Assembly (NCBI GenBank): GCA_964651095.1 | Contig: CAZYWO010000001.1 | Span: forward strand, 1-60,461 | DNA length: 60,461 bases | Origin: an uncultured Oscillospiraceae bacterium | GTDB taxonomy: Bacteria; Bacillota; Clostridia; Peptostreptococcales; Anaerovoracaceae | Direction: 5' to 3' | In this document: piece by piece, positions 5,366 through 28,254 of the stretch | How positions within the stretch are numbered: position 1 is the first letter of the stretch | How the letters are laid out: every line of letters begins with the position of its first letter | Position numbers and translations under genes: made by a program | The notes under the pieces: model-generated | What the model saw: only the letters and a program-made list of their open reading frames with translations | Databases searched by the model: none | What the model was told of the DNA's origin: nothing

Positions 5366-6973
5366 TCAGTTAAATATATTGTTTGTCTGTACTCCACCAT
5401 ACATCTGCCTGCGGGGCGGAGACTTCTTGTACTTATCCCATATGCCCCATACCTGAATTTCAATTTTATCGGTATTTTCCGGCCTGTCATTATCCGTTTT
5501 CTCACGGAGGGCACGGTTAAATTCCTTGTCTCCAAGACCGAGAATTTTGTTGAATTCCGTTTTACTCAAATCGGGGGCATTCATAATGGCGGGGTAAGAA
5601 TCACTGAGAACAAGCATATAAGGCCGGGCTATTCTTCCAACCTCATCCGGTGTTAAAAGGTCCCGTGCGATGAGCTGCATACTTGCGCTTGAATTTGCCG
5701 GCGCTATAAGCCCCGTAGATGCACTTGCACTGAGACTTTGTGATGAACAGGTATATTTTCCGCACCGAGCTGAAATTTGTTTATGTGTTTCTTCATCAGA
5801 AGAAAGATAAATCCATATCACACAGTTTGTAAACACTGTCTGAGCTGTATTTTTTCCATAGGTTTCTTCCACTTGGCTCATTGACTGAATAAACAGATTG
5901 AAACGTATGCCACGGCCTCCGCCAACGGTCAGCTTAGACGCAAATGAGGGGATCTTTGTAAAGTTGCCGAACTCATCGAGAATGAAGTTGCAGCGTATTT
6001 TAAGCCTGCCGCCACGCTTGTCTGCCACTTCTACAAGCTTACAGTAAAGACTGTCTACAAACATTGATGCTATGCTGTAATATGTCTCTTTTTCATCCGG
6101 CAGAATAATAAAAAGTGCCGTTTTCTTTTCAGGAATATCTGAAAAAGAAAAGTCGCTGCTTGAGGTTATATTGTAGATGTAACTGTCCACAAACAGTCTT
6201 AGTGATGCCAAAGCTGATGCGTAAAAGCTGCCTCGTGTTTTGGAGGGAGCAACCATTGCGGCCGCAAGCAGACTTTTTGCCGGGTGATTGTAGTCGATTT
6301 CTGTCAGGTATTCGTCCAGTGGCATTTTATCGCCTATTTTACACATTTCAGCAATAAAAAGGTAAACATTTGTAAGATTTTGAAACTGAGGCTTTTCCTT
6401 GTTATCATAAACCACAGCCATAATGGTTGATGCCAAAACAGCTTTTTCGCCCTCCGTCCATATCTTTTCCCCGGTATGCTCCTTTACATTACCGCTGAGA
6501 CTTTCCGCCATGTCCAACGCCAGTTTCTGGGCCTTGGATAAATCATCGTTGTTGACCTCATTTATGATTTCCTGAAGCAGGTTATAGCGTTTGCTTTTCT
6601 TTGGGCTGCGAAAATCCATATCAATAACGTTATACCCCTGTTTTTTAAGATAATTAGAGGTATAAGCAAAAAGCTCGCCCTTGGGGTCGGATATTATCAT
6701 GCTTTCTCCGGACATTGCTAAGGTGCAAATGGACGGAAGTACAACGCTGCGTGATTTGCCGCTGCGAGTGGCGCCGATACAAAGGGTATGTATATCATCA
6801 TTTACAAAATATGTTTTGGTACCGTTATGTCCGGGCTCCATTCCAACCACAATTCCGCCGCCGTTAGAAAACGGTGATTTCTGTTGTTTCTTCGAGTTTA
6901 TCAATGACTGACTGATATTCTTCACGTCCTTTCTCTGCTTTTTCTTCATCTGTTCCTTTAGCCTTTTGAGCAA
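5366..6973 (-). CDS. virD4: VirD4/TraG-family type IV coupling protein, soluble ATPase part (no TM anchor)
   Basis: Walker A is IGATRSGKSRS and Walker B is CNFILDEFGNF. No hydrophobic N-terminus. The track start is TTG at 6973. A likelier start is ATG at 6949 (SD-like AAAGGAAC) or ATG at 6841. The 5' end overlaps the preceding ORF. Confidence 0.85.
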   Translation of the reverse strand: MLKRLKEQMKKKQRKDVKNISQSLINSKKQQKSPFSNGGGIVVGMEPGHNGTKTYFVNDDIHTLCIGATRSGKSRSVVLPSICTLAMSGESMIISDPKGELFAYTSNYLKKQGYNVIDMDFRSPKKSKRYNLLQEIINEVNNDDLSKAQKLALDMAESLSGNVKEHTGEKIWTEGEKAVLASTIMAVVYDNKEKPQFQNLTNVYLFIAEMCKIGDKMPLDEYLTEIDYNHPAKSLLAAAMVAPSKTRGSFYASALASLRLFVDSYIYNITSSSDFSFSDIPEKKTALFIILPDEKETYYSIASMFVDSLYCKLVEVADKRGGRLKIRCNFILDEFGNFTKIPSFASKLTVGGGRGIRFNLFIQSMSQVEETYGKNTAQTVFTNCVIWIYLSSDEETHKQISARCGKYTCSSQSLSASASTGLIAPANSSASMQLIARDLLTPDEVGRIARPYMLVLSDSYPAIMNAPDLSKTEFNKILGLGDKEFNRALREKTDNDRPENTDKIEIQVWGIWDKYKKSPPRRQMYGGVQTNNIFN

Positions 6974-7367
6974 AACTGTCTATGGCTTTTTGCTGTAAAA
7001 TTGCCTTTTTAATGGAAAGCCTATATGTATCAATATTATCAGGGGTGTCAAGCATAATCTTTTCCATTTCAGCTATTCCACCATACTTTTCGGCTTCCCT
7101 CTTAAGGGCGGCTTCCACCTCATCATCTGTAACACTGATTCCCAGCTTTTCCATTTCAGCAAAAAACACCATATCTTTTGCGGTTTGCTTGACAGCATTG
7201 CCTTTGCGTGCATCAAGCCTCATGGAGATGTCATATTGTCTGATTTTGGCACCGTTTACTATACCTACGACTTTGATTTCGTAGGCGTAGACAAAGGCTC
7301 CGGCACATAACGCCGCACCCAACAGGAATGACGGAACATATTTAAAAAAGCATTTTATTTTTTCCAC
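6864..7367 (-). CDS. Membrane-anchored SurA-N/PrsA-like chaperone-domain protein
   Basis: 167 aa. N-terminal anchor FLLGAALCAGAFVYA, then a helical Lys/Glu-rich domain resembling the SurA N-terminal / PrsA chaperone region. Confidence 0.4.
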   Translation of the reverse strand: MEKIKCFFKYVPSFLLGAALCAGAFVYAYEIKVVGIVNGAKIRQYDISMRLDARKGNAVKQTAKDMVFFAEMEKLGISVTDDEVEAALKREAEKYGGIAEMEKIMLDTPDNIDTYRLSIKKAILQQKAIDSFAQKAKGTDEEKAEKGREEYQSVIDKLEETTEITVF

Positions 7368-7368
7368 G

Positions 7369-26773: not shown

Positions 26774-27870
26774 CTGCTTTCTCTCCTTCCGGAGCCGACA
26801 ATATTGGTCAGCAGTTCAAAATTAGAGGGAGACAAATATCTCTTTACGTCCTCAGTTCTGAGGTTTCCTTTGCGTATATGATTTACTGCATTGTCTACAA
26901 TATGTACATTGCCGCTTTCCGTCCGTGAGCGCATATAATCATATATGGCATTCGGATTGTTATGGTTGCGAATCTGCCCTCTTATACTGTCATCAACAGC
27001 CATAACCTCCACCAACGGCACTCGTATGGGCTTTGCACTGCTTCGCACAAGGGATTGGTGTACGACTCCCGTAAGCGTATCAGCCAAGAGGCTTCGGGCC
27101 TGTTCCTGCTGCCCTGCGGGGAAAGTTGTAACTATGCGCTCTATACATTCCACAGCTGAATTTGTATGAAGCGTAGCAAACACCAAATGCCCTGTATCCG
27201 CAAGGGTAAGCGCATTTGATATTGTATCATAATCCCGCATTTCACCTATCAGGATTATGTCGGGGTCTTGCCGCAGTGCATCCTTTGTGCCCTGGGCAAA
27301 GGATACCACGTCTGATCCGATTTCCCTTTGGGTTATCCATGCTTTTTTTGATTTGTGAATATATTCTATGGGATCTTCGAGACTTAACACTACCTTTTCG
27401 TAATCTCTGTTTATTTCATTGATAAGAGATGCAAGGGTTGTGGATTTACCACTGCCCGTAGCTCCGGCAACAATAACAAAGCCCTTGGAGGCTTTCGCAA
27501 ACTCTTTCACCGTAGACGGTATTTGCAGACTGTCGAAATCGGGAATAACATCGGACAGCAGCCTTATTGCCATGTTCAGACCATACATATCCTTGAATAC
27601 GTTAGCCCGAAATCTCCGACCGGCGAAATTAAACGCAAGGTCAAGCTGTTTTGCTTCGTTTTCGCCGGCAGCCACAAGGTGCTTTATCTTTTCGGCGTGT
27701 ACGGGAATATTTCTTTCGGCAAATTCTATAACAGCTTCACGTTCGATAACGTCGGCACTGCGTTTTATCAGTCCTTTATGCCTTAATCCTCCGTTGAAGC
27801 CCTCTTTTATGTGTATGTCGCTGCAATTGTTTTCCACGGCATACCGTATCAGTTCTTCCATTTGATTCAT
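26767..27870 (-). CDS. pilT: Type IV pilus retraction ATPase (PilT family)
   Basis: 367 aa. AGATGSGKSTT, LRQDPDIILIGEMRD and GHLVFATLHTNSA. Lacks the long N-terminal domain of PilB. SD AAGGAGCGG begins right after the stop of the upstream ORF. Confidence 0.85.
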   Translation of the reverse strand: MNQMEELIRYAVENNCSDIHIKEGFNGGLRHKGLIKRSADVIEREAVIEFAERNIPVHAEKIKHLVAAGENEAKQLDLAFNFAGRRFRANVFKDMYGLNMAIRLLSDVIPDFDSLQIPSTVKEFAKASKGFVIVAGATGSGKSTTLASLINEINRDYEKVVLSLEDPIEYIHKSKKAWITQREIGSDVVSFAQGTKDALRQDPDIILIGEMRDYDTISNALTLADTGHLVFATLHTNSAVECIERIVTTFPAGQQEQARSLLADTLTGVVHQSLVRSSAKPIRVPLVEVMAVDDSIRGQIRNHNNPNAIYDYMRSRTESGNVHIVDNAVNHIRKGNLRTEDVKRYLSPSNFELLTNIVGSGRRESRW

Positions 27871-27882
27871 ATAACCGCTCCT

Positions 27883-28254
27883 TTATTTTTTTACTGTAAC
27901 CGATGCGAAGTATTTTTCTTTTTCTTCTTCAGTCATCCACCGTGAGCTGCCATGCTCAAAATGTCCGGCAGGGGCCGGTGTGGATATGCTGTCTGTAATT
28001 TTAATAACGTCCGTTCTGAATTCCTTGAATTTTCCTATACCTGAAAGCACAACAAGGAGAATCAGCATCAGCTCAAAGCAAGCCGCAATCTTCATTTGCT
28101 GAGGGTTGGCAAAAAGACTTGTTATGCAGCCTTTAAAGTCAAAAATAACGGGCGATTTTGATAAAAGACAGTGAAGAACGGTGCTGACATATATGTTCAG
28201 CACCGTTCCGAGAACCATGAATATACTTCCGTATATGAGTTTGCGCTTGTTCAT
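27883..28254 (-). CDS. Stand-alone N-terminal membrane anchor of a VirD4/TraG coupling protein
   Basis: 123 aa. Two TM helices (IYGSIFMVLGTVLNIYVSTVL, IAACFELMLILLVVLSGIG), then GHFEHGSSRWMTEEEKEKYF. This is the conserved hGsArW..eE box that follows TM2 in one-piece T4CPs. The ORF stops there. Confidence 0.6.
   Translation of the reverse strand: MNKRKLIYGSIFMVLGTVLNIYVSTVLHCLLSKSPVIFDFKGCITSLFANPQQMKIAACFELMLILLVVLSGIGKFKEFRTDVIKITDSISTPAPAGHFEHGSSRWMTEEEKEKYFASVTVKK

Follow-up and report, generated by a model that had tools for sequence, protein, structure and literature searches.

The 60,461-nt stretch of DNA analyzed here (the window) is the entire contig CAZYWO010000001.1 of assembly GCA_964651095.1, a single metagenomic contig from an uncultured Oscillospiraceae bacterium, and it is a conjugative element of the type found in gut Clostridia. 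Its VirD4-type type IV coupling protein (T4CP) is divided between two open reading frames (ORFs) lying 20.9 kb apart, which, as judged from their homologues, are the halves of one protein. The reading that we favor, and that we consider probable, is a two-gene T4CP assembling in trans, with the gap between its genes being a recurrent cargo site, occupied here by a type IV pilus (T4P) and adhesin module probably serving mating contact. An earlier note, made from the DNA letters, had drawn attention to the two ORFs, one with two transmembrane (TM) helices followed by a motif, the other with a nucleotide-binding domain (NBD) and no TM segment. Both exist as described, on the minus strand like all the genes of the split region:

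27883..28254, minus strand: N-half of the T4CP, 123 aa, two TM helices and a cytoplasmic tail with the motif HGSSRW(M)TEEE
6974..27882, minus strand: nested module of 20,909 nt and 24 genes (T4P machinery, pilins, surface proteins, prepilin peptidase, foldase-like gene)
5366..6973, minus strand: C-half of the T4CP, a VirD4-type ATPase lacking a TM segment, with the NBD, an all-alpha domain and TraG-D_C

We looked for homologues of the N ORF by an exhaustive phmmer search, which returned 164 matches at E <= 1e-3 among 1.8 billion representative proteins. Among the matches were coupling proteins of 633-874 aa, aligned at residues 1-125 with E values down to 1e-14 (for example P0011, 759 aa, E 1e-14), showing that the 123-aa ORF does align to T4CP N-termini. 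The claim that the two ORFs abut in a T4CP alignment was borne out by tblastn on the window, as residues 1-123 of P0065 (636 aa) correspond to 28254-27892 and its residues 136-622 to 6859-5402, and about 17 of the 20 tested proteins longer than 600 aa match exactly two places, the N ORF and the C ORF, which follow each other as expected and almost without gaps. A second full-length virD4 was also looked for, by searching one-piece T4CPs against the window, and no other T4CP-like sequence was found there. The Pfam alignment of the concatenated ORFs that the earlier note had suggested did not give the expected result, the PF02534 match not being extended into the N-half. Full-length NCBIfam VirD4/TraG profiles on the joined ORFs do reach the N-half (residue 99 falls on profile position 91 and, with a second profile, residue 96 on position 112), with a score gain of 5-6 bits; therefore, the link between the halves is based on the homologues and on these full-length profiles and not on Pfam. 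The N ORF by itself gave no match in Pfam and NCBIfam scans, only itself and one relative in a word-indexed protein search, and nothing meaningful by tblastn against the PLSDB plasmids.

The N-half gene has a strong Shine-Dalgarno (SD) sequence, GGGAGG, 5 nt ahead of its ATG. Its product contains two hydrophobic segments, with centres near residues 15-23 and 61-68 (Kyte-Doolittle score KD19 > 1.6), followed by a cytoplasmic tail of about 45 residues (ITDSISTPAPAGHFEHGSSRWMTEEEKEKYFASVTVKK), and ends in ...PAPAGHFEHGSSRWMTEEEKEKYFASVTVKK just before the stop codon. The most conserved residues of the N-half are located in this tail, where P93, G97 and G102 are invariant across the homologues. 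Comparison with a relative, the metagenomic contig L001, gave proportions of nonsynonymous (pN) and synonymous (pS) differences of 0.17 and 0.72, respectively, and a dN/dS of about 0.08, and the N-half is thus under purifying selection.

The C-half ORF encodes 535 aa, counting from a TTG, and has no TM segment (maximum KD19 1.48). Its Walker A (GATRSGKS) and Walker B (ILDEFGN) motifs and all the conserved NBD columns are intact. The protein matches PF02534 (E 4e-67), PF12696 (4e-32) and PF10412 (1e-19), and the NCBIfam model NF045973, "VirD4-like conjugal transfer protein, CD1115 family", with 334 bits against a cut-off of 250 (E 1e-99). A trait of T4CPs, the TM domain (TMD) on the same polypeptide as the NBD, is absent, the TMD being carried by the separate 123-aa ORF 20.9 kb upstream. 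The conserved sequence starts at 6862 (GGGIVVG), 2 nt past the stop of the upstream foldase-like gene, and the candidate start codons are ATG 6949 (SD AAAGGA), GTG 6925 and GTG 6850. The gene caller picked GTG 6850 (494 aa), which drops a glycine found in all of 54 homologues, while ATG 6949 or GTG 6925 preserves this glycine at the cost of a 62-86-nt overlap with the upstream gene; the relatives have the same open frame upstream of the C-half. At 6864-6973 (minus strand) up to 110 nt are read in two different frames, as the start of the C-half ORF and as the end of the foldase-like gene, and both frames and their overlap are kept in the relatives L087 and L088.

We modeled the joined N and C ORFs by AlphaFold2 (AF2). 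The model has a pLDDT of 86.6 and a pTM of 0.80, with disorder confined to the junction (residues 127-149) and to the extreme C-terminus. It shows the fold expected of a T4CP, with a RecA-like NBD and an all-alpha domain, and its best Foldseek matches are Cag-beta (8dol, E 2e-23, TMt 0.68) and TrwB (1e9s, E 4e-18, TMt 0.74). Residues 91-110 of the N-half are predicted with pLDDT 92-95 in the N+C fusion versus 65-66 for the N-half alone, the alignments behind the two models being nearly identical (48 of the same 54 sequences). Moreover, a strand at residues 117-122 forms only in the fusion model, next to the first NBD strands. This gain in predicted confidence of the tail in presence of the NBD indirectly favors docking in trans.

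In the mechanism that we propose, the 123-aa product would insert in the membrane by its two helices, with both ends in the cytoplasm, and its tail would dock non-covalently, probably by beta-strand addition, on the N-terminal beta region of the ATPase that starts with GGGIVVG. Such docking would restore a normal VirD4 protomer without a covalent link, and hexamers of the N/C pair would accept the relaxase-DNA complex and pass it to the VirB4/TrbL channel encoded directly downstream. The two modules of the one-piece relatives are connected by a variable, disordered linker. This linker, or the intergenic gap in its place, recurrently takes cargo, which in the lineage of the window is a complete T4P system with adhesins. 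The nested module most likely mediates donor-recipient contact, which it may make or stabilize in the way of the type IV pili of IncI plasmids. A bolder reading, which is tentative and to which we give clearly less than an even chance, sees in it a dedicated conjugative pilus of a Gram-positive element. The module would then belong to the machinery of transfer, seeking out recipients and drawing them in, and would have been fixed between the T4CP genes, so that pilus, adhesins and type IV secretion system (T4SS) would be inherited, and perhaps expressed, as one unit, and deletions removing the module would also risk disabling transfer. On this reading, the gap between the T4CP halves would be a previously unrecognized landing site for accessory genes throughout this family of conjugative elements of Clostridia.

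The gene content of the interval agrees with the earlier note's list, to which a SpoVG-like gene, absent from it, has to be added. In order of transcription, the module contains:

26767..27870, minus strand: pilT-like gene for a putative retraction ATPase, 367 aa (PF00437, 6e-42)
25073-26773, minus strand: pilB (PF00437, T2SSE, 2e-114)
23359-25068, minus strand: pilM-pilN fusion with a PilN domain
22367-23365, minus strand: pilO-like gene
21147-22367, minus strand: pilC, assigned through its L001 homologue (71% identity), which falls in the T2SSF family
20361-20957, 19547-19951, 19097-19534, 18419-19096 and 17926-18429, minus strand: five pilin genes
19973-20296, minus strand: SpoVG-like gene among the pilin genes (PF04026, 1e-22)
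16491..17925, minus strand: broken Rpn/PDDEXK_2 block (PF12784, 1e-33) with an internal tandem duplication
8242..16490, minus strand: six secreted or surface proteins with signal peptides, including Big_2, LRR_5/BspA and coiled-coil domains and one lipoprotein
7369-8154, minus strand: pilD prepilin peptidase (A24_N_bact, 5e-24)
6864-7367, minus strand: membrane-anchored foldase-like gene (weak SurA_N_2 and Trigger_C matches)

A T4a-like set is therefore present, with extension ATPase, platform, alignment proteins, prepilin peptidase and class III signal pilins. In all five pilins, a hydrophobic helix comes after the N-terminal prepilin motif, (K/R)xxA|FTL(V/A)E. The 367-aa protein is a T2SSE protein without the N-terminal domains of PilB, and the PilT label comes from its size and position. 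Its gene starts 12 nt past the stop of the N-half, as the earlier note had seen, and its SD overlaps the N-half stop codon. The six secreted or surface proteins are putative adhesins; homologues of their genes are found in the same order in L087, and in L086 an adhesin with LRR_5 and SLH domains occupies the same slot. The order pilD, foldase-like gene, C-half is kept in L087, L088 and L091. When PilB was searched by tblastn against PLSDB no close match was found, the best ones being from Proteobacteria with less than 46% identity.

The Rpn block has the promoter of its own that had been claimed, a perfect TTGACA-17-TATAAT match at 17918-17890, and a terminator-like hairpin at 16532-16506, with the gene itself being broken. 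It consists of a 180-aa PF12784 ORF, an overlapping 148-aa ORF and a 112-aa ORF from a tandem partial duplicate of about 360-380 bp; an intact version of 312 aa is found elsewhere in L001 (1845-2783). In L087 a big surface-protein gene directly follows the last pilin gene. The Rpn block, missing at this same site in L087, is a secondary insertion. SpoVG-like genes are also found right after the N-half in L086 (10420-11118) and within the T4SS operons of L092 (12254-12559) and L094, suggesting that this gene is a regular, unexplained component of these elements.

We then compared the relatives, including those lacking the T4P block. For the reference survey, 80 loci were taken from genomes that represent species of Lachnospiraceae, Oscillospiraceae, Desulfosporosinus and other groups, and the loci were scanned with a narrower alignment, as a first one (A1) was too diverse. 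Results showed an intact one-piece T4CP of 660-800 aa in 47 of these 80 loci and an adjacent two-gene form in 23, in which an N ORF of 143-165 aa is followed about 50-100 nt later by a C ORF with its own SD and start. Four further loci carry 0.7-6.2 kb of cargo between the halves, made of unrelated genes (for an ankyrin-like protein, for example, and for a 1126-aa repeat protein accompanied by small ORFs), and three loci show an apparent frameshift. Cargo was also found in metagenomic loci. In L086, 6.9 kb separate the halves and encode a SpoVG-like gene, a 1793-aa surface protein with LRR_5 and SLH domains and a prepilin-peptidase-like gene; in L092 and L094 the halves are separated by 2.2 kb of genes on the opposite strand (PadR/DUF2812/YhfC in one, Fic/DUF2651/DUF2089 in the other), and in L113 the N-half is truncated just past the motif and followed by PP2C-like genes. 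Considering that varied and unrelated cargo is seen in several loci, the linker, or the gap replacing it, is a recurrent cargo site. Four metagenome loci flagged as carrying cargo were rejected because they turned out to be premature stops in one-piece genes.

The layout with a pilus between the halves was found in five other metagenomic elements, on six contigs. L001 and L087, which come from one Logan sample, are the only relative yielding both halves (identity 73% for N, 79% for PilT, 68% for PilB, 71% for PilC, 82% for C and 87% for VirB4), and they are collinear with the window over the covered parts of the module except for the Rpn block, most of the pilin cluster being outside the contigs. 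The others show one end each: L085 has an N-half (40% identity) with pilT 5 nt later, L088 and L091 have pilD, the foldase-like gene and a C-half (78% and 65% identity, respectively), and L089 has pilC, pilins and large secreted proteins, then a C-half (57% identity). Wherever a relative shows that end of the module (L001, L085, L086, L092 and L094), the N-half is still found at its head. The split is an old one, given that splitting is common in the family, that the pilus layout recurs at these identities and that selection preserves the N-half; this agrees with the earlier note's impression of evolved junctions. Two of the reference-genome loci, L061 (7552-8025) and L078 (9992-10384), contain an intact N-half gene with no ATPase gene within 5-10 kb downstream. 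In L061 the N-half is followed by a LacI-type regulator and genes for sugar utilization, and in L078 by other, unrelated genes. These loci may be decayed elements, elements with very large cargo, or element boundaries.

The earlier note had left two alternatives, a cassette landing inside virD4 with the halves now working in trans, or a two-piece T4CP tied to pilus genes. The second is favored, as 23 of the 80 reference loci have the two-gene form and the gap recurrently takes cargo. The first is less favored, with the limit that a neighbor-joining (NJ) tree of the NBDs puts the window and L086 on deep branches, apart from the clade of adjacent splits as well as from the main clade of one-piece proteins, and that on such a tree the cutting of an intact gene and insertion in an existing gap look the same. 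The harsher version of an insertion, in which a pilus cassette broke an intact virD4 and left decaying pseudogene fragments on an element that no longer transfers itself, is quite improbable in our opinion. It would fit the one-piece majority among the relatives, the absence of the linker helix from the N-half of the window, the secondary Rpn insertion, which shows that the region tolerates insertions, and the N-half-only loci beside unrelated chromosomal genes (L061, L078). However, both ORFs are intact and have translation signals, the Walker motifs and all the conserved NBD columns included, the layout persists in relatives 18-60% divergent in protein sequence, and pS of 0.72 versus pN of 0.17 excludes neutral decay of the N-half since the split from L001. 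Nor was a target-site duplication, which the earlier note had proposed to search for, found at the junctions: the longest common junction sequence is a low-complexity 10-mer, CTTTTTCTTC, equalled in 29 of 500 shuffles, and was rejected. That the separation is only an assembly artefact, a chimera, has hardly any likelihood; the window is indeed a single metagenomic contig with ends that do not overlap, but each of the two junctions is also seen, independently, in other samples and with other assemblers (N-half then pilT in L001 and L085; pilD, foldase-like gene and C-half in L087, L088 and L091), and the GC content is uniform across the region.

A different question is whether the C-half alone counts, as an autonomous TM-less ATPase binding the T4SS directly, the 123-aa protein being a leftover that has another role or is dispensable. 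We consider this unlikely, even if it is the most serious of the competing explanations. The nearest relatives of the C-half are all TM-less (490-545 aa), T4CPs without a TMD can still transfer their plasmids according to reviews, and a TcpA deletion mutant without its TMD conjugates, at lower frequency (PMC7434980); in addition, TraJ of pIP501 interacts with core T4SS components (PMC13037476). TM-less T4CPs might reach the channel without an anchor, and this weighs against assembly in trans, as do several other points. The AF2 model was calculated on a fused single chain. The N-half of the window lacks the helix that follows the motif (…ELIxxGYDDLDF) and is retained by the adjacent-split N-halves, a feature shared with the N-halves of the other cargo-bearing variants (130-140 aa). 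The start codon of the C-half is uncertain, since preserving GGG needs an overlap of 62-110 nt with the upstream gene and the gene caller's GTG loses it. Terminator-like hairpins follow pilC (21140-21117) and the Rpn block (16532-16506); with the Rpn promoter, all of them called as consensus matches, they suggest that the N and C genes may be transcribed separately, which would also suit an ATPase acting alone. Finally, none of the 160 loci obtained from reference genomes and from JGI/ENA metagenomes has the pilus variant, with no further pilus-bearing relatives among the best 80 loci of the metagenome scan, so that it is confined to a small deep-branching lineage known only from a few metagenomic contigs. 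On the other side, an N-half without function in coupling would hardly preserve the exact T4CP juxtamembrane motif and its invariant residues with a dN/dS of 0.08, nor its position at the head of the module in L001, L085, L086, L092 and L094, where that end is visible, and its tail is confidently predicted only when the NBD is present. For these reasons we keep the two-gene T4CP assembling in trans as the preferred reading.

The T4CP is co-encoded with channel genes and a relaxase. Directly downstream of the C-half is a T4SS block (1210..5350) whose gene order is the same as that after the T4CP in plasmids with a one-piece T4CP. Upstream of the split region in transcription order, the window encodes a Tad-like pilus module and a MobA/VirD2 relaxase, which presumably works with the T4CP on the substrate side. 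A primase, a 3080-aa protein with helicase domains, ParAB and an integrase are encoded there as well. The main features are:

5003-5350, minus strand: pilin-like T4SS gene, directly after the C-half
4139-4999, minus strand: TrbL/VirB6 (TrbL_4, 1e-72)
2957-3595, minus strand: TrsD-like 212-aa ORF (NCBIfam matches)
1210-2970, minus strand: VirB4, 586-aa ATPase (AAA_10 and P-loop_TraG; NCBIfam matches)
within 1210-5350, minus strand: small membrane proteins of the T4SS operon
35323-41048, minus strand: second pilus module, Tad/Flp-like
40371-41048, minus strand: RcpC/CpaB of the Tad-like module
39640-40371, minus strand: ParA/TadZ-like gene of the Tad-like module
38238-39650, minus strand: T2SSE ATPase of the Tad-like module
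35790-36191, minus strand: DUF4320 gene of the Tad-like module
within 35323-41048, minus strand: two likely TadB/C-like genes
43058..44410, minus strand: MobA/VirD2-type relaxase (PF03432, 1e-24)

The element thus holds a T4SS, a T4a-like pilus and a Tad-like pilus, and Tad-like genes are present in the relatives L086, L092 and L094 too. VirB4 also seems to be in two ORFs, the TrsD-like one (2957-3595) and the 586-aa ATPase (1210-2970), overlapping by 14 nt. Upon joining them, the match to NF045975, a model of the one-piece VirB4 of a Mycoplasma integrative and conjugative element (ICE), widens from positions 292-884 (359 bits) to 102-884 (399 bits), and in B. thuringiensis pBMB68 an ORF of about 230 aa likewise precedes VirB4. 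Just upstream of the N-half, an 872-aa protein with a signal peptide and no Pfam match is encoded at 28272-30890 (minus strand). Its last ~220 residues are in common with a 630-aa protein encoded upstream of the N-half in L086 (2499-4391; 31% identity), and it is conserved over its whole length in L001 (69% identity); by these comparisons, it is a conserved, uncharacterized surface protein of these elements. At 46249-55491 (minus strand) a single ORF of 3080 aa unites MutS_I, DUF6908, SNF2/ResIII and Helicase_C domains, with a DUF3848/3849 gene on one side and a Toprim/DUF3991 primase on the other.

Two-gene coupling proteins are already known. What is new here is the 21-kb separation, the complete T4P/adhesin module kept between the halves and the evidence for a general cargo slot; we found no description in the literature of a complete set of T4P and adhesin genes lying between T4CP genes and conserved in several relatives. 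Gram-positive conjugation is usually portrayed as relying on adhesins and doing without pili, and how TM-less coupling proteins reach the membrane is a matter of proposal only, for TraI/TraJ of pIP501. The window and its relatives form a natural series, from one-piece genes to adjacent split genes and to split genes with 0.7-21 kb of cargo, which shows the anchor to be a detached VirD4 N-terminus and the linker to tolerate complete physical separation. The tail motif HGS[AS]RW…F is the likely docking element and makes the model of assembly in trans directly testable. The gut Clostridia elements described here unite a T4SS, a T4a-like pilus with a variable set of adhesins and a Tad-like pilus, and if the pilus serves mating this would have a bearing on the spread of genes in the gut microbiota. 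By serving as a handle for searches, the slot between the halves could also help to find accessory modules of these elements.

Several known systems resemble the window in part. In pIP501, TraI is the putative membrane anchor of TraJ (PMC13037476, PMC7434980, PMC12857230). The TraI-like protein of pRE25/pIP501 has 143 aa, with two TM helices followed by VHGSAYWGEESE, and its gene adjoins the one encoding the TM-less CD1115-family TraJ, so that both pIP501/pRE25 and the window combine such an ATPase with a separate 2-TM protein carrying the HGSxxW...E.E motif (HGSAYW in pRE25, in a layout parallel to that of the N ORF), within a monoderm T4SS operon containing TrbL/VirB6 and VirB4. On the contrary, traI and traJ overlap by 8 nt while the halves in the window are 20,909 nt and 24 genes apart, the order of the T4SS genes differs, and the anchors are only marginally similar in sequence (E 0.003 for a profile searched against 3 sequences). 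In IncH-type TraG-TraJ the coupling function is likewise divided between an ATPase and a separately encoded small membrane protein (PMC7434980), but the T4CP retains its own TMD, and TraJ, with up to five TM helices, is an extra partner and not a detached N-terminus.

Considering the pilus, type IV pili on IncI plasmids and PAPI-1 aid conjugation (PMC12857230, PMC9045228), the thin pili of IncI1 R64 and IncI2 TP114 and the pili of PAPI-1 stabilizing pairs of mating cells, especially in liquid or inside the gut (PMC9045228, PMC12857230). Like the window, these conjugative elements carry their own T4P, adhesin diversity, a T4SS and a T4CP. Their pili are of the T4b type, belong to diderm hosts and are not nested in a T4CP gene, whereas that of the window, with its putative role in mating, is T4a-like (pilB, pilT, pilC, pilMNO), monoderm and accompanied by a Tad-like module. 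The joined ORFs also have a parallel in the one-piece T4CPs of the CD1115 family (WP_044798567 of pBMB68, 648 aa; Clostridia ICE proteins of 630-800 aa), which have the same domains in the same order and whose loci share the downstream synteny of pilin-like gene, TrbL, small proteins and VirB4. There the protein is a single polypeptide, and in Bacillales plasmids its gene comes after a MobP3 relaxase; in the window, at the place of the linker of these proteins, the first ORF stops and the second starts anew after 20.9 kb of other genes.

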